Sequence record: PX880102.1
Source of the DNA: a phage
DNA: 64,000 nt
Strand: one strand, 5' to 3'
Shown: piece after piece, positions 49,847 to 62,048 of the stretch
Layout: every line of letters starts with the position of its first letter
Numbering within the stretch: position 1 is the first letter of the stretch
Program-made: the position numbers and the translations under genes
The notes under the pieces: generated by a model
Told to the model about the DNA's origin: nothing
Databases searched by the model: none
What the model saw: only the letters and a program-made list of their open reading frames with translations

Positions 49847-50317
49847 TTAATCATGTGTCCACACCCCATCGGTATTTGACCAAAGTCGCTGATTATCTGA
49901 TCCTCGCCACAGCTTTTTAGTCGGAAGATTTTTTTCATACTTCCCATCAATAATAACATCAACATATTTAAGCATTTCTAGTTGTTTAATATCTTCAAAC
50001 TTATATCCTGTCCACAACCAAATGCTTTTATTGGGATAAAGATTTTTTACTGTTTGAACCACAGAGTGAATCACGTCTCTGTTATCAGGATAAAGAGGGT
50101 CACCCCCAGTTATAGTTAATCCTTCTATATAATCATTATTCAAACATTCAATTAATTGTTCTAGTGTTTCACCAGTGAATGGAACACCATTTCTGGCATT
50201 CCATGTTGATTTATTATAACACCCTTCACATTTATGCAAACAACCTGTAACGAAAAGAACGACCCTGCAACCAGGGCCATTCACAAAATCGCAAGGATAA
50301 AATCTATCATAATTCAT
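49847..50317 (-). CDS. nrdG: anaerobic ribonucleotide reductase activating protein (radical SAM), 156 aa
   Basis: CxxxCxxC radical-SAM motif (GCLHKCEGCYN); same length as T4 NrdG. Confidence 0.9.
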   Translation of the reverse strand: MNYDRFYPCDFVNGPGCRVVLFVTGCLHKCEGCYNKSTWNARNGVPFTGETLEQLIECLNNDYIEGLTITGGDPLYPDNRDVIHSVVQTVKNLYPNKSIWLWTGYKFEDIKQLEMLKYVDVIIDGKYEKNLPTKKLWRGSDNQRLWSNTDGVWTHD

Positions 50318-52131
50318 TGGTGTTTAACCCTATGCATGATTTCTTTATTTTTACCGAGATTAAATCCGCGTTCGTTCGGATTTCCCAAATAACCGCATGT
50401 TCTTCTTATGGTATTCATCTTTTTAGGATCAGTTTCTCCACAAATAGAACAAACAAATCCGTTTTCAGTAGGAGTCATTTCATGGGTACTTCCGCATGTA
50501 AAACATTTATCTACTGGCATATTAACACCAAAATAATCTAAATGTTGTGCAGCATAATCCCACACGGCCTCAAGACCTTTTAAGTTATTTTTCATATCAG
50601 GAAGTTCAACATAAGAAATGTGACCACCTGTCGCAATGAAATGATATGGTGCTTCGCGAGAAATCTTTTCAAACGGAGTAATATTTTCTTCTACTGAAAC
50701 ATGGAAACTGTTAGTGTACCAACCTTTATCGGTAACATCCTTTACACTTCCATATTTTTCGGTATCAAGTTTACAGAAGCGATAACAAAGGTTTTCAGCA
50801 GGAGTAGAATACAAGCTAAAAGCAAACCCAGTTCTTTCAGTCCACTGCTTAAGACGAGCATTCATTTTAGTTAAAATTTCCTGTCCAATATCACGACCGA
50901 CAAGAATATTCAATTCGTGAATACCAATGTATCCTAGAGACACTGAACTTCTGCCATTTTTAAATAACTCAATTATGTCGTCATCAGGTTTAAGACGAAC
51001 CCCGAATGCGCCTTCTTGGTAAAGAATAGGAGCAACAGTCGCTTTAACTCCTTTTAAGGAACTAATTCTACACATCAAAGCTTCAAAACACAAATCCATT
51101 CGTTCATTGAATAATTCAACAAATTTCTGTTCATTGAATTGTGTTCCAATATAAGAATCTAACGCGATGCGAGGAAGATTCAGTGTTACAACGCCAAGAT
51201 TATTACGTCCATCAAGAATTTCATTACCAGTCGAATCTTTCCATACGCTCAAGAAACTACGGCAACCCATTGGAGAAACAGGAATAGATGAGCCGGTGAT
51301 AACTTTATTGTTCTTAGCTGAAATAATATCAGGATACATTCTTTTGCTTGCACACTCTAAAGCAAGCTGCTTAATATCATAGTTCGGATCGTCTTTATAA
51401 AGATTAACACCTTCTTCAACGAACATAACAAGCTTAGGGAAAATAGGAGTTATCCCATCACGACCAAGACCTTTAATACGATTTTTCAGAATTGCTTTCT
51501 GAATCATTCGTTCAGTCCAGTCAGTTCCTGTACCAAATGTAATTGTTACAAAAGGTGTTTGTCCGTTTGAGCTAAAGAGAGTATTTACTTCATATTCATA
51601 AGCTTGGAATGCATCGTATACATCTTTTTCTGTTTTAGATTGAGCATAATTCAACGCATCAGCGATTTGCCATTTTTCTGCATCCTCAATATGTTTTGCA
51701 TAGGTGCGTTTAACATAAGGAGAAAGTACTTTATCTACATTAGCAAAAGTCGTTCCGCCGTATTGATGGGAAGCAACCTGTGCAGTAATTTGTGCCATAA
51801 TTGCAGTAGCAACACCGATTGATTTAGGAGTTTCAATCTGTGCATTACCAAGCTTAAATCCGTTCTCAAGCATTCCTTTTAAATCTACTAAACAACAATT
51901 AGTAAATGGAAGAGCAGGGGAATAATCAATATCGTGGAAATGAATAATTCCGCTTTCATGCGCTTTCATAATAAAAGACGGGACCATATTTTTGGCAATG
52001 TGTTTAGACACAATACCAGCCATAAGGTCCCGTTGAGTTGGAAAAACACGAGAATCTTTATTAGCATTCTCGTTTAAAAGGTCTTTATTAGTTTTATGAA
52101 TCAATCCTTCAATTTCTTTTTCAATTGTCAT
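50314..52131 (-). CDS. nrdD: anaerobic ribonucleoside-triphosphate reductase, 605 aa, uninterrupted
   Basis: glycyl-radical C-terminus (...RTCGYLGNP...), C-terminal Cys cluster; a single 605-aa ORF. Confidence 0.95.
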   Translation of the reverse strand: MTIEKEIEGLIHKTNKDLLNENANKDSRVFPTQRDLMAGIVSKHIAKNMVPSFIMKAHESGIIHFHDIDYSPALPFTNCCLVDLKGMLENGFKLGNAQIETPKSIGVATAIMAQITAQVASHQYGGTTFANVDKVLSPYVKRTYAKHIEDAEKWQIADALNYAQSKTEKDVYDAFQAYEYEVNTLFSSNGQTPFVTITFGTGTDWTERMIQKAILKNRIKGLGRDGITPIFPKLVMFVEEGVNLYKDDPNYDIKQLALECASKRMYPDIISAKNNKVITGSSIPVSPMGCRSFLSVWKDSTGNEILDGRNNLGVVTLNLPRIALDSYIGTQFNEQKFVELFNERMDLCFEALMCRISSLKGVKATVAPILYQEGAFGVRLKPDDDIIELFKNGRSSVSLGYIGIHELNILVGRDIGQEILTKMNARLKQWTERTGFAFSLYSTPAENLCYRFCKLDTEKYGSVKDVTDKGWYTNSFHVSVEENITPFEKISREAPYHFIATGGHISYVELPDMKNNLKGLEAVWDYAAQHLDYFGVNMPVDKCFTCGSTHEMTPTENGFVCSICGETDPKKMNTIRRTCGYLGNPNERGFNLGKNKEIMHRVKHQ

Positions 52132-53250: not shown

Positions 53251-53640
53251 TTAACCCCGAAGCTTATTAAGTTCTTCATAATCAATCCAGGATTCTAATC
53301 CTGATGGCAAATCAGATTCAATTTCCCAAAGAAGCTCTTCAATTTTCTGAAGACGATCTAGTTCTTCAGCTGGAATAGTAACCATTGATGGAGTTCTTGA
53401 TACACTAATATCGTAAATCATATTTACCCCCAGTTTGACCATGCAATCACCGTATTTCCACTTAGAAATAGACTTTTCACCATTAGAATAATAAACTTCG
53501 AGTTTAGCACGATTATTTTTAATTTGAATAACCTTGGCTGTCATCAAAGTTCCATACCCATAATAAACTGCAACTTCATCACCTACATATACCGCGCTTC
53601 CGCGGTAATCATGGATATAATCAGTTCCTTCGAGCATCAT
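53251..53640 (-). CDS. hypothetical protein (129 aa)
   Basis: ORF. Confidence 0.5.
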   Translation of the reverse strand: MMLEGTDYIHDYRGSAVYVGDEVAVYYGYGTLMTAKVIQIKNNRAKLEVYYSNGEKSISKWKYGDCMVKLGVNMIYDISVSRTPSMVTIPAEELDRLQKIEELLWEIESDLPSGLESWIDYEELNKLRG

Positions 53641-53901: not shown

Positions 53902-54144
53902 TTATTCCTTAATTCCTAGTACTTGTTTAAAAGTCTCGTCGTAATCAAGACTTTGGCCCGTTTGTTCTTTATGTTTGTACATAATATCACTTACTTCTGA
54001 TAGCATATTTTTATATGAACGAGTTAAAGCAGATTTAAGCACGCTGTATCTATCAGGAAATTTACCATGTTCATTATAATAAGCTATTGCTAATTCACGG
54101 ACTGCCTTTTCAGCAGTCTCCATATATTCTTTACGCTTGGTCAT
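53902..54144 (-). CDS. hypothetical protein (80 aa)
   Basis: ORF-track ORF trimmed to [15 protein letters not shown], adjacent to the upstream stop. Confidence 0.45.
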
Positions 54145-54145
54145 T

Positions 54146-54535
54146 TTAATCCAAAATATTATTAGGCATTGGTTGAACACTCGCAAGTTCTTTAAAGAAC
54201 TCAGTAGAGTCAGGTAATTTAACCATTTCCGGAGCATGCTTGCTAAATTTGTGTTTACAATGACGGCATTTATATTCAAGTTCCGGTTTACGCCAATTAA
54301 TTAATTGAACCTGTTCAGTACCGCATTCAGGACAATTAGGAACGTTTTTAGAAGCCCTTTCGCGACGTTCAACCATAGCCATAATAGCATCCCAGGCTGG
54401 AGGTTTAAAGTCTAAATCATCACAACCATGAATCTTTCCACGCATTTCCAGATCGTCTTCTTCACCAGCCATAATAATTTTAATTAGACTGGAATTACTT
54501 GAAGCTGCAATATCTTCTAATAGACGCTTTTTCAT
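54146..54535 (-). CDS. zinc-ribbon protein (129 aa)
   Basis: CPECGTEQ...CRHCKHKF four-Cys ribbon. Confidence 0.5.
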
Positions 54536-55461
54536 TTCAATACCTCAATAGCATTACGTAAACCATTTGCTTTCGCATTAAGAGCTTTTAACAATTTGGT
54601 GTGTTCGGCAATCTGGGCTTCAACTTCAATCAAACGAGCATTGAGATATTCACGTTCTTCGCTCAAGTTATCAATCTTTTCTACTTTAGGCTCTTTTACA
54701 ACTGTCTTATATGTATTAGGGTTCTTCAGTTTAATTAGAATACGTGAACTGTATAACATTGAACCATTATCTTCGATTTCATCATACATTTCTACTACGT
54801 CCATGATTTTTAACATCATGCGGAGTTTATAAGACAACGAACGAATAGTTTTGTTGTGCTTATTAATTTCTTTAGAGTTCATGGTGCCAAGATTACGTGA
54901 GTAATAATAAGGAACCTGGATATTAATTAACACTGATGAACCACCTGGCTTGTGTGTTACTTCATCAGCAATAACCCAATCCTTAACATGAACTGTATTT
55001 GTACGGTCATCACCAGCAGTAAATAGTTTGCGAGCATGCTTAAAAAGCATATTCACTTGGTCATTGAATTGACAAGCAAATTTATCAGCAAATTTAGTTT
55101 CAGGAATGGTAGATAACCAATCAGCCAAGTGGGTCTTTTTAACATCGTTAACAATAGTAAATTCAACCAAATCGGTTATAGATGTTGCAGATTTAATGAA
55201 GCTCGGCTTCATTAAGTTTTTAATGTTATCGCGAGCTACAGTAGAAGATAACATACGAGAACGTTTAAACCATTCAAGCAAATTGCCTAACGAATGAGAA
55301 TAAGCGTTTTGAGTATCTTTACAGATATGATTTTCCTGACCAACATATTGAAGGAAATCACGAAGAATATTATTGATTACTGCTCTGTGTCCGATTTGAT
55401 AATTACGGTGTTTAGTAATAAGACTGTCAAAATAATCAATATAATGTTTACGAGTTTTCAT
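54532..55461 (-). CDS. hypothetical protein (309 aa) with C-terminal coiled coil
   Basis: N-terminal MKTR motif; C-terminal heptad-rich segment ...[40 protein letters not shown]. Confidence 0.55.
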   Translation of the reverse strand: MKTRKHYIDYFDSLITKHRNYQIGHRAVINNILRDFLQYVGQENHICKDTQNAYSHSLGNLLEWFKRSRMLSSTVARDNIKNLMKPSFIKSATSITDLVEFTIVNDVKKTHLADWLSTIPETKFADKFACQFNDQVNMLFKHARKLFTAGDDRTNTVHVKDWVIADEVTHKPGGSSVLINIQVPYYYSRNLGTMNSKEINKHNKTIRSLSYKLRMMLKIMDVVEMYDEIEDNGSMLYSSRILIKLKNPNTYKTVVKEPKVEKIDNLSEEREYLNARLIEVEAQIAEHTKLLKALNAKANGLRNAIEVLK

Positions 55462-55513
55462 GTTCTTCTCACTTGGTTAATGATTTATACTCCGAGCCAT
55501 CCTTGGCTTTAAA

Positions 55514-56515
55514 TTACTTAATTAACTGTAAAGCTTGTTCAAGACGATCCAGGCGATTAACAGATTCTTCCCAAATCCTTTTAGCCTGCTCATATTCTTT
55601 CTGCGCTTTATTAGAAATTTCTAGAGCTTCTTTATAAGCTTTTTCTAGTGCAATAACTTCTGGACGAATTTCTATCGGTTCAGGTGAATCGTCAAGACAT
55701 TCCATTAGTTCCTCAAGGGTAGTTTCTTCTTTAAGAGTATTCACAATTTCATCACATTTTTGCTGGTAAATTTCTTTATCAGTCGGTGAGTACGCACACT
55801 TTACTTCACGAAGACTAATTATAATTTTATATCCTTCCCATTCACACATATTTTTGAAAGGATATGTATGAATACTTTTTACAGTTTCCATACAGCCCAA
55901 AGCCGTCTCTAATTGATGAGTTATAGTGCTAGCAATTGAGAAAAATTTATTAATGTTCTTTTGATTAGCTGCTGGTGTAAAAAATCCATAATTCACAAAA
56001 ATAGCTACTTTATTTTTATCAAGCTCATATTCTTTTACGATAATCATATCAGAAGCCAAAGGATGAATTTGACGATAATCGCCATAACATAATTTAGAAG
56101 CTGATTTTAGAATTTGTCCTTTGAAAAGTCTGAAATTACTAATCCAACGACGAGTAAAAATATTCTCAGGGTCTTCTTTAATATTAAGATGATAAGAATT
56201 AACATCACCGAACCAATTATATCCTACTACATCTTTAGTTCGTTTAATTTCTTTCCCAAATTTACCAAGAATATCCCTATTAACCAAATATGAAAGAAGA
56301 CGAGACCCTTTAAAGGTTTTCTTAATGGCATCTTTATCTGTACGACTAGAAATTTCACGAACTTCATGAATAAATTTGCCGGAAGAAACAATACTTGCAT
56401 CAGTATTATTGAGCCATTGATTGATAATAGAAAGAACGCTATTTTGGCCAAACATCGGTATAGCTTTATCATCAATAACGCTATTGAATGATTTGATATA
56501 TTCGTTACGAGTCAT
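55514..56515 (-). CDS. hypothetical protein (333 aa) with C-terminal coiled coil
   Basis: trimmed to MTRNEYIKSF after SD GAGGAG; C-terminal ...EKAYKEALEISNKAQKEYEQAKRIWEESVNRLDRLEQALQLIK. Confidence 0.55.
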   Translation of the reverse strand: MTRNEYIKSFNSVIDDKAIPMFGQNSVLSIINQWLNNTDASIVSSGKFIHEVREISSRTDKDAIKKTFKGSRLLSYLVNRDILGKFGKEIKRTKDVVGYNWFGDVNSYHLNIKEDPENIFTRRWISNFRLFKGQILKSASKLCYGDYRQIHPLASDMIIVKEYELDKNKVAIFVNYGFFTPAANQKNINKFFSIASTITHQLETALGCMETVKSIHTYPFKNMCEWEGYKIIISLREVKCAYSPTDKEIYQQKCDEIVNTLKEETTLEELMECLDDSPEPIEIRPEVIALEKAYKEALEISNKAQKEYEQAKRIWEESVNRLDRLEQALQLIK

Positions 56516-56539
56516 AATAATCTCCTCAGTAGAAAGTAA

Positions 56540-56595
56540 AAACATTATACCACATCCTTGTGGCAAAGTAAACTAGTTCAGTGCATTTAGTGCAT
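56540..56595 (-). promoter_or_regulatory. T4-type early promoter
   Basis: minus-strand GTTTAC tttgccacaaggatgtg GTATAAT; ACCAC...GTGG inverted repeat in the spacer. Confidence 0.6.
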
Positions 56596-57592
56596 TGTTC
56601 AGTTTAGAACGTTGCTTCGTGAGATTTTTGACTTTTTCTTGAGCTTTTTCTAGCATCTTTTCAGCTTCTAGCACTTCATTGGTCGCTTTAACGAGTTCAT
56701 CATCTACTGCCTTGATAGACTTCTCAATCGCATCCGCGTGCCATTTTTCAACAGGTTTAAGACTCGGATTTTCAATAGGAAGAAAATTCACTTTATTGAA
56801 TTTCCATGCATCTTTATTGCCTGAACTATACATCCAAAATTTAGGATCGTTTGATGAGTAATTAGATAAATTTAAGTTATCTTGCACTTCCTGCTTTTTC
56901 TCTTGCGGGACTTCGTCCTTTCTCAAAAAATCGTATTTAAATGAAACGATCATATCAAGTTCATATGTTGTTGTATGTTCCCAATTTCGCTCAAAACGAG
57001 GTAAAATCTTAGAATGAACAGCGGCAACAACATCCATATACTTAAATGCTTCTGTCAACTGCGATTTAAGGCATTCGCAAATTGAAAGAGAATTTTTTGT
57101 ATTAGGTTTAAAGCTAATTCGTGCAGTTCTGTTATTTTCTTTTAATGGTCTTACTTCCATCTGAAGAGTATAACCATCAAATTTCAGGTTCTTTAAGTTA
57201 ATGTCAGAACCTTTTAATCGACTAGCCGTTGACAAAATTTGCTTTAATTGTTTACGGAATAGAGCAATAAATCTCCATTCAATACGATAATGATTTGGAT
57301 TAAAAAATCCAGATGATAAATCGACCTTACTCTGACCAACGCCCTGAACAAATAGAGGATTTTTATAATCAATAGTTTTACAGAAATCGGTGAGCTGCTC
57401 ACGAGCCGTCATTTGTGTAATATACCCCGCTTTACTAAAATGACGTAACCATTCACTGCTATTCATATATTTAAAGTGAATATCACGATTAACTTTATCA
57501 GGATCTAAATTATTTTGGCACAAAAATGTCATAACATCACGAGTATAGCTGGCATTACGAACCATATCTTCAATTTGAGAACGAGTTTTCAT
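56573..57592 (-). CDS. hypothetical protein (339 aa) with C-terminal coiled coil
   Basis: N-terminal MKTR motif; C-terminal ...AIEKSIKAVDDELVKATNEVLEAEKMLEKAQEKVKNLTKQRSKLNNALNALN. Confidence 0.55.
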   Translation of the reverse strand: MKTRSQIEDMVRNASYTRDVMTFLCQNNLDPDKVNRDIHFKYMNSSEWLRHFSKAGYITQMTAREQLTDFCKTIDYKNPLFVQGVGQSKVDLSSGFFNPNHYRIEWRFIALFRKQLKQILSTASRLKGSDINLKNLKFDGYTLQMEVRPLKENNRTARISFKPNTKNSLSICECLKSQLTEAFKYMDVVAAVHSKILPRFERNWEHTTTYELDMIVSFKYDFLRKDEVPQEKKQEVQDNLNLSNYSSNDPKFWMYSSGNKDAWKFNKVNFLPIENPSLKPVEKWHADAIEKSIKAVDDELVKATNEVLEAEKMLEKAQEKVKNLTKQRSKLNNALNALN

Positions 57593-57600
57593 GGTGTTCC

Positions 57601-58488
57601 TTAAGATTTAAGTAAATCAACAATTTTAATTAATTTTTCACGTTCAGATTTAGCTTTACTACTCAATCCAGATAGTCTGAAAATTTCATCGTCATATTGT
57701 TGAATAGAAATATTCAGCTCTTCAATTTGCTTATTAAAATAATCAATTTGCTCAGAATGTTTTTCATTACTGCGAACTGGTACAGGTTTTGTAGGCAATT
57801 TAGTTAAACTGGATTCATCCGGGCGATAAATTAAAATACAACTTGAACCAATCGGGCATTTAACACCAGACACATATTCTAATGTTCCGGCTTCTTTTAA
57901 AACTTCAAAAGCTAAACAGAGATGATGCCCCATATTAACATAATCTGTAGAGCGAGCTCTGACATAATAATCATCTCCGCGAATACTAAATTTAAAGCAT
58001 TTAAGGTCTTCTGTATTATTGGTCTTAAAAATCATTTGTTTATCTAGACCTTTAGCTAATCGAGCGCCTAATGCTAATAATCGTCGTTGATTTTCCCACA
58101 AATCTGCGATCATTTGGTCAAATGATAATTTCGGCATTAGTCGACCATAAAGATCATAGCCTTTATTATAATTGCGAAGAATTTCACTCGCGTTAATACG
58201 AGACAATGCTCCAATTTTATTAAGGGCTTTCATAATGCGATTAGATAAACCCATTCCAGACCCGTTTGTTCGCTGCAAATGTTTTTCTAATCCAAATCCA
58301 ATATCAACTTTAAACTTATCTAAAATTTCTGCATGAACATCTCTGTCAATAACATTCAAATCCAAAGTTGGGTTAAATCTATGAAAAAATTTATCTGGCT
58401 CTCCACGACGAAGTACAGTCCATTCATTCATTTTTTTATTAACTAAAGATTTAATTACTGTATTGACATTATTAATTACTACTGACAT
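57601..58488 (-). CDS. hypothetical protein (295 aa) with C-terminal coiled coil
   Basis: trimmed to MSVVINNV after SD GAGGAAAAT; C-terminal ...QIDYFNKQIEELNISIQQYDDEIFRLSGLSSKAKSEREKLIKIVDLLKS. Confidence 0.55.
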   Translation of the reverse strand: MSVVINNVNTVIKSLVNKKMNEWTVLRRGEPDKFFHRFNPTLDLNVIDRDVHAEILDKFKVDIGFGLEKHLQRTNGSGMGLSNRIMKALNKIGALSRINASEILRNYNKGYDLYGRLMPKLSFDQMIADLWENQRRLLALGARLAKGLDKQMIFKTNNTEDLKCFKFSIRGDDYYVRARSTDYVNMGHHLCLAFEVLKEAGTLEYVSGVKCPIGSSCILIYRPDESSLTKLPTKPVPVRSNEKHSEQIDYFNKQIEELNISIQQYDDEIFRLSGLSSKAKSEREKLIKIVDLLKS

Positions 58489-58495
58489 ATTTTCC

Positions 58496-58903
58496 TCACT
58501 CAATTTCAATTTTACTAAATACACAGAATATGATGGAAAAGACTATATAAGCACCGCATACAGATTGAACTAATACCATTCCAAAGAACCAAACAATATT
58601 ATCAAACAATGTCTGTTTTACGTCGAAAGGACGTAAACTTACAGTAATATTATCGCCTTTTTCTATTGATGAATAGATCTCTGGTGAAATATATTCGCTA
58701 AATCTATAACCGTCATTTAGTTCATATACGGCAATAAACGATAAACTAGACCCCTTTCCTTGTGTTCCTGTAATGGTATTAACTACAGTAACATCATAAT
58801 CTTTATAATGCATATAATCATTAATTGCGTAATAACCATATGCAACTACTACACATAAACAACATATCAATAAATTCAATCTTTTAATTATCAACCGTTT
58901 CAT
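58496..58903 (-). CDS. membrane protein (135 aa)
   Basis: N- and C-terminal TM segments. Confidence 0.5.
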   Translation of the reverse strand: MKRLIIKRLNLLICCLCVVVAYGYYAINDYMHYKDYDVTVVNTITGTQGKGSSLSFIAVYELNDGYRFSEYISPEIYSSIEKGDNITVSLRPFDVKQTLFDNIVWFFGMVLVQSVCGAYIVFSIIFCVFSKIEIE

Positions 58904-58958
58904 AATAATCTCAATTAAAAGGGCTTAAAACCATTATACCATCCTTGGTATAAAGCGG

Positions 58959-59486
58959 TTATGCGAGTACCGTCTTTAACCGTTCTTCAAACTTCCGAAG
59001 AGTATTTTGGCGTTCAGCTCTTTGCTTTTTGTAAGTTTCAATACGCTCTGAAATGAGAGTGTATCGTTCATTTACTGATTCTTTCATAAAATCAGGAATT
59101 TCACGAGAAGCTTTAATCTCGTCAAATTTATCAATAACAGCTTGCTCTTCAGCAATTAAGTTATCATACATCAAAATATCTTTCTTGATGAACTCAATAT
59201 CTTCTTGAGTTACACGAGATAACTTAGATGCTTTATCCTTTTTGTACTGTTCGTTAGTATCACGAGACCAGTGTAATGTACGATTTTTATTCGTATTCTT
59301 GTAAATTTCTACAATACCAATCTCATCAATAATAACGATCCAATTCCAACGGGATTTGTAAATTTGTCCTCCATCAACCGTGATTTCACCTCCGATTGAG
59401 ATGTCATTAAAGAACTTGCTTTGTGCTTCAGATTTAAATTTACCATCGTTGTAATTTACCAGGTTGAAAATATCTTTAGCGTTCAT
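58959..59486 (-). CDS. hypothetical protein (175 aa) with coiled-coil C-terminus
   Basis: ORF behind an early promoter. Confidence 0.5.
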   Translation of the reverse strand: MNAKDIFNLVNYNDGKFKSEAQSKFFNDISIGGEITVDGGQIYKSRWNWIVIIDEIGIVEIYKNTNKNRTLHWSRDTNEQYKKDKASKLSRVTQEDIEFIKKDILMYDNLIAEEQAVIDKFDEIKASREIPDFMKESVNERYTLISERIETYKKQRAERQNTLRKFEERLKTVLA

Positions 59487-59509
59487 TTTGTGTTCCTCCG
59501 TAGTTGATA

Positions 59510-59570
59510 GTTGTATAGTACCACAGAGGAACAGTCTTGTAAACCACTAAAAGAAACTTCTTTCACAATT
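59510..59570 (-). promoter_or_regulatory. T4-type early promoter cassette
   Basis: minus-strand GTTTAC (plus 59538-59543), -10 TACTATAC, conserved leader ctccgtagttgatag. Confidence 0.55.
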
Positions 59571-59861
59571 TTTTCCACTGAACCAGGCGCTCACTGCTTT
59601 CTTAGTCTCAGGAGCGGTGTTATCCATAAACCATTCAAAGGCAGCCTTTTTATGATTCTGGAGGGCTTCTCGGGCTTTAATCTGCTCACGGTCTATTAAC
59701 ACTAACATATGAGCCTTTCTTGTCACCATGGGCTTCTTATGATTTTTTGAATACTCCCAATCATTTGTCCATCGCATCGTTGTTGCGAATTGAAGTACAG
59801 CTTCTTTAATCTTAGTTTCGTAAATTTCACGAGCCTTTGAGTATAACATCACTACCTCCAT
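59547..59861 (-). CDS. hypothetical protein (104 aa)
   Basis: ORF. Confidence 0.5.
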   Translation of the reverse strand: MEVVMLYSKAREIYETKIKEAVLQFATTMRWTNDWEYSKNHKKPMVTRKAHMLVLIDREQIKAREALQNHKKAAFEWFMDNTAPETKKAVSAWFSGKNCERSFF

Positions 59862-59951
59862 TTACCAGTTTAATTCTAGTCATCTTTTTAATGGCAGTCC
59901 ATATAATCTATTTCTGAACTGCCTTTTTTGTCTTAGAAGGCCTCTTATGAA

Positions 59952-60920
59952 TTATTTCAGAAGAGTAACCTCAGCGATTTCTTCCCAACCGTTTTTGTCG
60001 GTCATAATAAAGTCAGCAAGATAAAGAGCAGTACGCAGTGAAACATTGCGTAAACGATTAACATTGACTTTCATCCATGATAGTGCTTTATAAGTTTCTT
60101 CATCAGAAAGACCGCGCTTTTGCATCATGTCAGTTGAAAGAATAACATCTTCAACCCTGACCATAATTTCTTCATTAGTGTGAACACCCAAATCCAAATA
60201 AACTGAGCGGGACACTAATGCTTGTAAATGTGGAGCAAGTTTAGTACCACGGTCTAATTCGCGGTCAATGTCAACGTTTGTGATAAAAACAATCGTTCCT
60301 TTAAATTCAAACTCACGCTCAATGCCTTTTTCTTCTAAGTAAGAAGACGCAGTGCTCCAGCAGACTTTACGGGTCTCTCCGGTGTCCAGAGCAGCTTTTA
60401 GAAGATTAAGAATGTCCATATCAGAGAAAACATCCACATCATCAATCAAAAGGACAGAATTCTCTTCACGATTATTCCAAAGCTGCTCATAAAGACCAAT
60501 ACCAGAGATTTTACCATTAATGCTTTTATATTCAATGTATCCAATATCATTTGCTTTATTCAAAGCTTTATCTAAAGAATACGTTTTACCAATACCTGCT
60601 GCGCCAGAGATAATTAATGAACGAATATTTCCATTAATAATACCATTCGTCATCATTCCCATAACATTAAATCTTTTATTAATGCGGGTTTTCATATCTT
60701 CATATGATTCTTTAACTTCTTCAACTTTTACACCATCATATGAAATATCTGATTTGTAAACCCAAACACCGCGACGCTTACCGTCAATTTCAACAAAAAC
60801 TTTACCATCTCCTTGTGCATCTACCGGAGCATTATCTGGGAACCATTCGCCTAAGAGCTCAAAAGTTCCAGAGATTTCTTTACCGAAGTAGATACCCTTA
60901 TTGATAGTTACAGTTTTCAT
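59952..60920 (-). CDS. P-loop ATPase (Walker A GAAGIGKT, Walker B LLIDDVD), 322 aa
   Basis: motifs read directly; ORF-track start (TTG) trimmed to the ATG after the conserved leader. Confidence 0.55.
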   Translation of the reverse strand: MKTVTINKGIYFGKEISGTFELLGEWFPDNAPVDAQGDGKVFVEIDGKRRGVWVYKSDISYDGVKVEEVKESYEDMKTRINKRFNVMGMMTNGIINGNIRSLIISGAAGIGKTYSLDKALNKANDIGYIEYKSINGKISGIGLYEQLWNNREENSVLLIDDVDVFSDMDILNLLKAALDTGETRKVCWSTASSYLEEKGIEREFEFKGTIVFITNVDIDRELDRGTKLAPHLQALVSRSVYLDLGVHTNEEIMVRVEDVILSTDMMQKRGLSDEETYKALSWMKVNVNRLRNVSLRTALYLADFIMTDKNGWEEIAEVTLLK

Positions 60921-60949
60921 TTTATTCTCCAAATCCGTATCAGTTGATA

Positions 60950-61010
60950 GTTGTATAGTACCATAAAGCTTTATGCTTGTAAACCGTTTTGTGAAAAAAT
61001 TTTGAAATAA
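60950..61010 (-). promoter_or_regulatory. T4-type early promoter cassette
   Basis: minus-strand aaaattttttcacaaaacgGTTTAC (plus 60978-60983), -10 TACTATAC. Confidence 0.6.
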
Positions 61011-61032
61011 AAAAGGGAGCCCGAAGGCTCCC
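61005..61032 (-). terminator. rho-independent terminator downstream of the nucleotidyltransferase-like gene
   Basis: GGGAGCC-uucg-GGCTCCC hairpin followed on the minus strand by TTTTTTATTT. Confidence 0.7.
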
Positions 61033-61034
61033 TA

Positions 61035-62048
61035 TCATTTATAATAACTTCGGTGGTTTTCAAGATAAACCCTCTCAAGGAAGTCATCCCAGAAACCCAT
61101 ATCTACTTTTTGCTGCATACCGTTCTTAGAAGCTTCAATGGATGCTGCTTCTACTTGATCGACCACATCTTCCAAAAACTCTTGAACTGTTTTAAACGGA
61201 TGTTTACCCAACTTCACGTCGAGAATAAATGGAGCATCTTGAAGTGGATAAATCAAGTCGCCAGTTTTATAAATTTCCAATAGTTGAAGTCCACCACGAC
61301 AAGCATGACTCAAAGCTTTCCAGTCAATGCCCTCATTCGCTTCAGCCTTACGAGCACGTTCGCCGTATTCAGCATCAAGTTTATTCAAAGATTGCTTAAG
61401 CTCAATAAGAGAAAGCGTTGTCTGATATTTACGACCCAACACTGTGTAAAACGTCTGTGGGCCTGTTTTCTCATGATTATGAAATACCCATTCACAGAAT
61501 TCGTTCTCTGGAAGACGATGCTTAATATCTTCAATCTTAGTTCGACGTTGCTTAATGGAACCGTCTTCTTGATAATCAACCCACTGATCAGGGATTTGAT
61601 TAACTACTTTCAATACATCACGTAATGCGGCCAAACGAGAACCCTTGACGCCGTATTTAGAAGCTTGCTTGCGAACATATCCTAAATAGGATTTCATGTT
61701 AGTCGTATAAAAACGAGAACGGTTGTCTTGAATAAACTTCCATACATCAGGCAAATCAGATTTAACTACTAGTTCCGGTGGAGTGTGGAGCATATCCAAT
61801 GCTACAGTTTCACCATCTGCTGCTAATTTAAAGAAATACTTAAGACTGTATAGTTCATGGTCAATATCATCTTTAGTGTTTTTAGATGATGTGTTGTTAG
61901 TGTTTTTACTCATATGCTCTTTAACATTTCCGATAAGAATATCACGAGCAGGAGGAACAAAGATTTCTTTAAAATCTACATCAGATTCTGGAGTAGAAGT
62001 TCCATAAAGATGACTACCAAAATAGCTTTTCATTACTGTTTTCATCAT
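61035..62048 (-). CDS. nucleotidyltransferase-fold protein (Pol-beta superfamily motif GS-x10-DVD), 337 aa
   Basis: N-terminal YFGSHLYGTSTPESDVDFKEIF matches hG[GS]-x9-13-Dh[DE]h; candidate third acidic residue in VALDML. Confidence 0.55.
   Translation of the reverse strand: MMKTVMKSYFGSHLYGTSTPESDVDFKEIFVPPARDILIGNVKEHMSKNTNNTSSKNTKDDIDHELYSLKYFFKLAADGETVALDMLHTPPELVVKSDLPDVWKFIQDNRSRFYTTNMKSYLGYVRKQASKYGVKGSRLAALRDVLKVVNQIPDQWVDYQEDGSIKQRRTKIEDIKHRLPENEFCEWVFHNHEKTGPQTFYTVLGRKYQTTLSLIELKQSLNKLDAEYGERARKAEANEGIDWKALSHACRGGLQLLEIYKTGDLIYPLQDAPFILDVKLGKHPFKTVQEFLEDVVDQVEAASIEASKNGMQQKVDMGFWDDFLERVYLENHRSYYK

Follow-up and report, generated by a model that had tools for sequence, protein, structure and literature searches.

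Previously, Srikant, Guegler and Laub (2022, PMC9391042) reported that T4 clones missing a segment of their genome could not infect E. coli ECOR17, that deletion of dsr1 in this host restored infection, that cloned dsr1 protected MG1655, and that plasmid-expressed T4 nrdC.5 alone restored plating on Dsr1-carrying E. coli. Here we analysed a 64,000-nucleotide segment of a Tequatrovirus (T4-like phage) genome (sequence record PX880102.1; henceforth referred to as 'the window'), in which nrdC.5 belongs to a tandem array of four large genes, nrdC.3 to nrdC.6, and we found that these four, together with single-copy genes of other T4-like genera, form one superfamily. The window gene at 56573-57592 is the orthologue of the tested T4 NrdC.5 (NP_049703), with 92.9% identity over the full length, conserved synteny and the same position and Pfam family (DUF7235), and the anti-Dsr1 activity published for the T4 protein can presumably be carried over to the window allele by this orthology; nrdC.3, nrdC.4 and nrdC.6 are its paralogues and have the same architecture and tail. 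The published activity is nevertheless that of the T4 protein alone. In function, NrdC.5 most resembles DSAD1 of an SPbeta-group phage, which reportedly inhibits DSR2 by binding it (Garb et al. 2022). DSAD1, too, comes from a phage and neutralises a defence-associated sirtuin; it differs in belonging to another phage group, in targeting DSR2 and not DSR1, and in that direct binding is established for DSAD1 whereas we infer it for NrdC.5.

Two further proteins of the same T4 region counter host defences: gp49.2 inhibits OLD (PMC13096335) and NrdC.1 inhibits Septu (bioRxiv 10.1101/2025.11.20.689424). Both are encoded, like the array, in the early-transcribed, dispensable pin-nrdC-mobD region, contain no recognised domain and are restricted to T4-like phages; they differ from the array proteins in being small, unrelated in sequence and size, without a coiled coil and outside the paralogue family. 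The T-even ipI/ipII/ipIII locus and the dmd-tifA-adfA 'anti-TA island' (TA, toxin-antitoxin; PMC9391042) are also dispensable clusters that vary among close relatives and set host range, but in these unrelated genes are clustered, whereas nrdC.3-nrdC.6 is one family amplified in place with an oligomerisation-type tail.

An initial annotation, made from the sequence alone, had described four consecutive genes of 309, 333, 339 and 295 amino acids (aa), and the genes, their coordinates and their N-termini were all as described:

54532-55461, minus strand: nrdC.3 orthologue, 309 aa; starts MKTRKHY; closest to nrdC.4
55514-56515, minus strand: nrdC.4 orthologue, 333 aa; starts MTRNEY; ATG at 56515, with GAGGAG before it
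56573-57592, minus strand: nrdC.5 orthologue, 339 aa; starts MKTRSQI
57601-58488, minus strand: nrdC.6 orthologue, 295 aa; starts MSVVIN

The window keeps the T4 gene order (nrdD, 49, pin, nrdC, nrdC.1 to nrdC.11), and the 5.6 kb around the array are 96-97% identical to many T4-like coliphages. Annotated relatives carry matching gene calls (54532-55461 is labelled nrdC.3 in KMB39 and T4), and identity to the remaining T4 orthologues is 60.5% for nrdC.3, 91.9% for nrdC.4 and 86.1% for nrdC.6, the last value being lowered by a C-terminal shift in the T4 reference copy. In that reference record (NC_000866; locus L002, 12067-12894) nrdC.6 encodes 275 aa, of which the last ~37 residues are out of frame, which removes the second half of the coiled coil. 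Since the T4 annotation used in the HIDEN-SEQ supplement has nrdC.6 at full length (891 nt), the short form reflects either a frameshift particular to one strain or an error in sequencing.

As regards existing family models, nrdC.5 matched Pfam DUF7235 (PF23882) with residues 1-339 on profile positions 1-307/307 (E=1.8e-126; 422.2 bits, cut-off 30); nrdC.3, nrdC.4 and nrdC.6 did not match this model, and the other Pfam matches of the array proteins were sub-threshold noise. Both nrdC.3 (E=1.3e-115) and nrdC.4 (E=2.4e-164) matched phrog_1435 end to end, and nrdC.6 matched phrog_2257 with residues 1-295 (E=1e-151). Among precomputed annotations, PF26897 stands on 65/65 nrdC.4 homologues and on the chimaeric protein P0056, the C-terminal half of which is nrdC.3, and PF26899 stands on 105/105 nrdC.6 homologues. 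Many GenBank records call nrdC.1 to nrdC.11, at 53902-62048 in the window, 'thioredoxin'; this label is an artefact propagated from the nrdC.x gene names, and none of the four array proteins matched a thioredoxin family in Pfam.

Full-length homology of the four array proteins

Direct comparison by BLASTP joined nrdC.3 and nrdC.4 alone (24% identity over 225 aa, E=2.6e-7), and no pairwise match of nrdC.5 or nrdC.6 to the other paralogues was significant. First profiles built from database homologues gave a probability of 97% for nrdC.3-nrdC.4, a suggestive match between the nrdC.4 and nrdC.5 cores, and weak nrdC.6 matches in consistent register. The four genes were joined into one family because both their cores and their tails are linked through a single-copy family, henceforth referred to as 'S', which is a gene of 309-337 aa directly upstream of nrdC.2 in Kanagawavirus (IME523, PEi20), Marfavirus (Marfa; P0234) and Mosugukvirus (PM2). 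Profile-profile alignment with hhalign connected nrdC.3 with nrdC.4 (97.7%, E=1.5e-12, residues 3-227), nrdC.4 with S (95.5%, E=1.6e-8, 163 core columns), nrdC.5 with S (95.4%, E=1.7e-8, the tail, end to end), nrdC.6 with S (89.6%, E=1.9e-6, 200 columns of core and tail) and nrdC.4 with nrdC.5 (78%, E=1.8e-5, core). The protein P0234 acts as a bridge, as it aligns over its full length to nrdC.4 (E=1e-9) and matches the nrdC.5 tail from end to end with its last 72 residues (32% identity, E=1.7e-5). Searched against 269 locus open reading frames (ORFs), core hidden Markov models (HMMs) stripped of the tail cross-matched other family members only, and full-length HMMs run on 385 ORFs recovered exactly 4, 3 or 1 members per locus and matched no other ORF. 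Several of the cross-family E-values, from HMMs and hhalign alike, were obtained in very small search spaces. What carries the case for paralogy is specificity, reciprocity and consistency of register in these sequence comparisons, and not any single E-value.

Predicted structure extended the comparison. The AlphaFold2 model of nrdC.6 was usable (predicted local distance difference test score, pLDDT, 78; predicted template-modelling score, pTM, 0.66), and Foldseek aligned it over its full length, at 10-14% identity, to BFVD proteins of 304-335 aa from many T4-like genera, among them IME523 (E=9e-8), PM2 (8e-7), Acinetobacter phages, Merlin, Mineola and the Yersinia phages fHe-Yen9-01 (313 aa) and fPS-65 (308 aa). 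The sole 335-aa coding sequence at the IME523 locus is the protein found by the P0234 sequence search, and because of this the 335-aa IME523 Foldseek match is taken to be the same protein. The best matches of the nrdC.5 model were proteins of ~330-370 aa from T4-like phages, with Merlin A0A0K1LMI4 common to both searches. Overall, nrdC.3, nrdC.4, nrdC.5 and nrdC.6 constitute one superfamily, cores included, with their single-copy counterparts in other T4-like genera. The initial annotation had described divergent central regions between conserved termini; the central regions are indeed divergent in sequence but not unrelated, as tail-less HMMs, hhalign and Foldseek each find the cores to be homologous, and 'conserved termini with diversified cores' understates a kinship that is one of paralogue expansion and not of end-modules placed on unrelated cores. 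A structural relation among the four, on which that annotation had made its interpretation depend, is thus present over the full length by profiles and by predicted structure.

We considered whether the shared tail could instead be a convergent, low-complexity coiled coil in four unrelated genes. Coiled coils do draw spurious similarity, and the failure of BLAST to relate nrdC.5 or nrdC.6 to the others is what such convergence would produce; however, core profiles without tails still cross-match specifically, the nearby gene nrdC.8, which also ends in a charged amphipathic tail, was never matched, the S family joins both cores and tails, and the Foldseek matches of the nrdC.6 model span the entire protein. 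We therefore regard convergence as extremely improbable, and chance similarity of the tails as effectively excluded.

C-terminal coiled coils and predicted architecture

The tails occupy the following positions:

54535-54681, minus strand: nrdC.3 tail, residues 261-309; period 3.5; a/d positions 74% hydrophobic (a = IRLILAI, d = LLVHLLL)
55517-55663, minus strand: nrdC.4 tail, residues 285-333; period 3.5
56576-56755, minus strand: nrdC.5 tail, residues 280-339; AlphaFold2 helix 280-338; period 3.5 (permutation p < 0.0005)
57604-57765, minus strand: nrdC.6 tail, residues 242-295; period 3.5; break at SGLS ~20 residues before the end

Heptad windows were scored with a heuristic of our own, not with COILS, and compared with shuffled sequences: the best 28-residue window lay at the extreme C-terminus in all four proteins and in nrdC.8 (z = 2.2-4.0 against shuffles), a pattern seen in 0/7 neighbouring control proteins. 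In family alignments of the last 49 residues the spectral maximum of hydrophobicity fell at exactly 3.5 in the nrdC.3, nrdC.4, nrdC.5, nrdC.6 and S families (permutation p <= 0.01), and the a/d register, counted from the C-terminus, was identical in all four array families, with a/d positions 66-76% hydrophobic compared with 11-21% elsewhere. The a/d residues are mainly I, L, V and A, although in nrdC.5 and nrdC.6 Arg occupies one 'a' position close to the C-terminus, and charged residues make up 35-39% of the tails compared with 27-29% of the whole proteins. The tails comprise ~seven heptads and end in a motif kept across the paralogues, (R/K)x(K/R)LxxA(L/I)xxL(K/N); the nrdC.5 tail can be aligned from end to end with those of P0234 and the S family. 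AlphaFold2 predicted a 59-residue helix (280-338, pLDDT 71-90) as the sole confident part of the nrdC.5 model, and two helices (242-271 and 276-294) for the nrdC.6 tail. The heptad-rich, charged C-terminal segment that the initial annotation had seen in all four proteins is thus borne out by period, common register and, for nrdC.5 and nrdC.6, modelled helices, and the tails are predicted to be coiled coils of at least four heptads with hydrophobic a/d positions, a period of 3.5 and a continuous helix, apart from the short break in nrdC.6.

The four proteins share a predicted architecture, namely an N-terminal helical domain, a beta-beta-alpha-beta-beta unit, a low-confidence linker and the C-terminal coiled coil. 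For nrdC.6 the helical domain spans residues 3-150 and is followed by strands 165-170 and 173-178, helix 186-199 and strands 204-210 and 216-221, after which come the low-confidence linker and the C-terminal helices. The nrdC.5 model, which is of low overall confidence (pLDDT 54), has the same order: a helix at 99-125 and another at 168-184, each followed by two strands, and then the linker and the long helix. The N-terminal domain carries the motifs FKxSRxLSxxxARxxLxxFG and hLxxA(S/A)(R/K)LxxG.

In the nrdC.5 model (m16f799a68547) the central beta-beta-alpha-beta-beta unit also drew BFVD matches to tail-completion, tail-terminator and neck proteins (probability 0.9-1.0; template-modelling score ~0.4 on the target). 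We did not rely on this likeness, as the model is poor and the better nrdC.6 model lacks such matches; it may be an artefact and, if real, would hint at virion-protein mimicry.

Copy number, alleles, selection and transcription

The family is confined to T4-like phages (Straboviridae and Marfavirus). A tail-less nrdC.3/4 profile retrieved 10 proteins, one of them a spurious repeat protein, among 1.84 billion cluster representatives, and the family therefore appears narrow as judged by this profile search alone; nearly every homologue of nrdC.5 has >=82% identity, and one has 40%. No relatives were found in the PDB by fold or by sequence (single proteins and profiles), PADLOC gave no match for the four proteins and NCBIfam nothing meaningful. 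Each locus contains four members in Tequatrovirus, three in loci that we call Dhakavirus-type, as the genus was confirmed for JS10 only, and one in Kanagawa-, Marfa- and Mosugukvirus. The VR phages among the three-copy loci are assigned to the genus Gaprivervirus, and the nrdC.5-type genes of Dhakavirus-type phages encode 297-307 aa.

This series suggests an ancestral state of one copy directly upstream of nrdC.2, from which the family would have expanded to three copies (nrdC.4, nrdC.5 and nrdC.6 types) and then, in Tequatrovirus, to four by the addition of nrdC.3, which is closest to nrdC.4. At the DNA level no repeats were found between paralogues beyond chance-level matches of 19-28 nt; of these, the only meaningful ones join the MKTR starts of nrdC.3 and nrdC.5 or the two promoter -10 regions. 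Because the paralogues lack similarity at this level, the duplications are old and not homogenised by conversion; recent gene conversion between the tails was rejected on the same ground.

To describe selection we used Nei-Gojobori pairwise estimates of dN/dS (the ratio of non-synonymous to synonymous substitution rates) from 8 Tequatrovirus genomes, a number set by the few Tequatrovirus loci that IMG/VR scans gave. Gene-wide values were 0.28 (nrdC.3), 0.20 (nrdC.4), 0.19 (nrdC.5) and 0.10 (nrdC.6), and the maximum in any sub-region was 0.39; most neighbours lay at 0.01-0.15, with nrdC.7 at 0.25, and the tails of nrdC.4 (0.04) and nrdC.6 (0.01) were nearly invariant. These values do not support the diversifying selection proposed in the initial annotation, in place of which we found evolution faster than in the neighbours and allele replacement in nrdC.3. 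The latter gene has at least three allele classes in 654 phage records, at >=90% identity to the window copy (358 records), at ~74-79% and at ~60% (the T4 type); the first ~70 and last ~45 residues are kept, the middle is replaced, and the neighbouring genes are >90% identical.

Several natural variants of the array were also observed. In P0056 (299 aa, encoded on a 167-kb contig) the middle of nrdC.5 is joined in frame to the C-terminal half of nrdC.3, with nrdC.4 deleted and the fusion point at a microhomology (FNKVN / FNDQVN); in locus L007 (9950-10982) nrdC.4 is split into ORFs of 193 and 158 aa; and ACG-C40 (NC_019399 47512-47727) keeps only the last 72 residues of nrdC.3.

The initial annotation had placed the genes in an early-expressed accessory block, at least one of them with its own early promoter. 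The region is indeed early-transcribed and dispensable, and the array appears to sit behind predicted promoters of the T4 early type:

56544-56573, minus strand: putative T4 early-type promoter, GTTTACTTTGCCACAAGGATGTGGTATAATG, a -35/extended -10 match directly upstream of nrdC.4
58926-58955, minus strand: second promoter-like TGGTATAAT element, just downstream of nrdC.8 and ahead of nrdC.7

The first of these reads GTTTACT-17-TATAAT with a TG extension (10/12 matches), overlaps the nrdC.5 stop codon by its first base, which is the final base of that codon, and extends into the nrdC.5-nrdC.4 spacer; a promoter is annotated at the same place ahead of nrdC.4 in the genome of phage Lutter. An extended -10 block, AAGGATG(T)GGTATAATG, is common to both elements, and the spacer of the nrdC.4 promoter holds an inverted repeat, CCACAAGGATGTGG, that was flagged by a terminator scan too.

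These data bear on an alternative in which the four paralogues are subunits of a single hetero-oligomeric early complex, held together by the coiled coil and acting jointly on one target. Such a complex would account for the identical register anchored at the C-terminus and the conserved terminal motif, for tails of nrdC.4 and nrdC.6 that stay near invariant while the cores drift, for adjacent genes arranged for co-transcription (nrdC.7-6-5 and nrdC.4-3-2), and for nrdC.3 alleles that retain the tail with the core replaced. However, a plasmid supplying nrdC.5 and no other paralogue was enough to restore infection of the Dsr1 host (although the deletion phage may still have carried some paralogues), genera with one copy imply that this copy acts alone or as a homo-oligomer, and one member is lost or split in the natural variants described above (nrdC.4 in L007; the nrdC.5-nrdC.3 fusion P0056). 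On balance we consider a joint complex quite improbable.

Of the neighbouring genes, nrdC.8 had been credited by the initial annotation with a similar coiled-coil tail:

58959-59486, minus strand: nrdC.8, 175 aa; amphipathic C-terminal helix; outside the family

The amphipathic helix is present, but its hydrophobic period is 3.6, its register differs from that of the four, and there is no homology: nrdC.8 was rejected as a family member, with hhalign E=0.039-0.27 against all five families and no HMM match at E < 0.01. A conserved ORF of 256-261 aa, two or three genes upstream of the family member and between it and nrdC.9, was observed in the single-member genera:

L017 5247-6017, L018 5269-6042, L019 4458-5243 and L020 4916-5686: 256-261 aa ORF of Kanagawa-, Marfa- and Mosugukvirus

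It was rejected as an extra member, being unrelated by hhalign to the family and to nrdC.8. Elsewhere in the window, nrdC.10 gave sub-threshold Pfam matches to AAA/STAND-type NTPase families and nrdC.11 matched an RlaP-type nucleotidyltransferase, and nrdD is an unbroken 605-aa ORF (50314-52131), whereas T4 nrdD is split by the I-TevII intron with mobC adjoining. Between pin and nrdC lies a 129-aa ORF (53251-53640, minus strand) that matches phrog_2112 (residues 1-102) and phrog_3402 (74-129) in series, the latter described as 'antitoxin from a toxin-antitoxin system'; at this site phage KMB39 carries two separate small ORFs of 71 and 56 aa, and T4 carries 49.2 and 49.3. The spot, beside the anti-OLD gene 49.2, is variable.

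Probable counter-defence role and its alternatives

The initial annotation had expected host-takeover or anti-defence effectors. An anti-defence role is supported for nrdC.5, through the action of its T4 orthologue on Dsr1, and the flanking genes 49.2 and nrdC.1 inhibit OLD and Septu, respectively; for nrdC.3, nrdC.4 and nrdC.6 such a role would follow from kinship and context. The genes nrdC.1-6 can be deleted from T4, and transposon mapping scored all four array genes as non-essential. The explanation that we favour, and hold to be probable though well short of certain, is that a lineage-specific family expanded in tandem within an anti-defence island and encodes oligomeric early counter-defence proteins with different targets. 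Under this explanation each paralogue would oligomerise through its coiled coil, and its diverged globular part would bind and neutralise a different host immunity protein, with the SIR2 NADase Dsr1, countered by NrdC.5, as the one documented case; oligomerisation, direct binding and an anti-defence role of nrdC.3, nrdC.4 and nrdC.6 are the parts that we infer.

Several points weigh against this explanation, beginning with the small search spaces behind some E-values and the low confidence of the nrdC.5 model noted above. The action of NrdC.5 on Dsr1 may be indirect, and the oligomeric state of the array proteins is presumed from their tails. No gene or sub-region had dN/dS >1 in the pairwise estimates from 8 genomes, and an arms-race signature is not demonstrated. 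In the one HIDEN-SEQ host comparison considered, nrdC.3, nrdC.4 and nrdC.6 had no significant effect (q = 1.0), and we found no published experiment that ties any of these three to a defence system, nor any functional treatment of them in the searchable literature.

Since many dispensable T4 early genes modulate host functions, we considered whether the paralogues other than nrdC.5 could be early proteins of host takeover or host physiology, acting on host machinery and not as immune inhibitors. The prevailing purifying selection, the lack of any anti-defence-related signature by PADLOC, Pfam and NCBIfam and the lack of a conditional phenotype in that HIDEN-SEQ comparison are consistent with this; yet a homologue in the same array and flanking genes are proven counter-defence genes, and copy number and alleles vary among close phages, a pattern more readily explained by host-range factors than by a fixed takeover function. 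We judge such roles unlikely, but they, together with the hetero-oligomeric complex, are the main rivals of the tandem counter-defence family that we favour.

A bolder version of the favoured explanation can be put forward only tentatively, and we would not be surprised to see it fail: nrdC.3-nrdC.6 might be a modular 'inhibitor cassette' in which a conserved coiled-coil stalk, perhaps mixing paralogue subunits, displays interchangeable recognition domains against different immune sensors or effectors, with host range widened by duplication (from 1 to 3 to 4 copies) and by swaps of core alleles within the conserved ends, of which nrdC.3 would be the example. If this were true, the best-studied phage would hold three further counter-defence proteins with bacterial targets.

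Taken as a whole, the observation made in the initial annotation holds, and its interpretation is supported in part, diversifying selection and the membership of nrdC.8 being the parts that fell away. The genes were already catalogued and the function of nrdC.5 published, and this is not a new kind of system; what appear to be new, judged by the searchable literature, in which we found no description of the paralogy of the four genes or of their shared coiled coil, are the family relationship, the copy-number series and the register-conserved common tail. T4 is the reference lytic phage, yet a function is known for only about half of its genes. That three uncharacterised early genes of ~300 aa are paralogues of a proven anti-Dsr1 gene gives them a testable counter-defence role, with other targets, while the coiled coil common to all four, together with the ancestral form kept as a single copy in other genera, suggests cut sites for mechanistic work. 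How phages diversify the determinants of their host range is a question to which the series of copy numbers and the replaced alleles of nrdC.3 are relevant.

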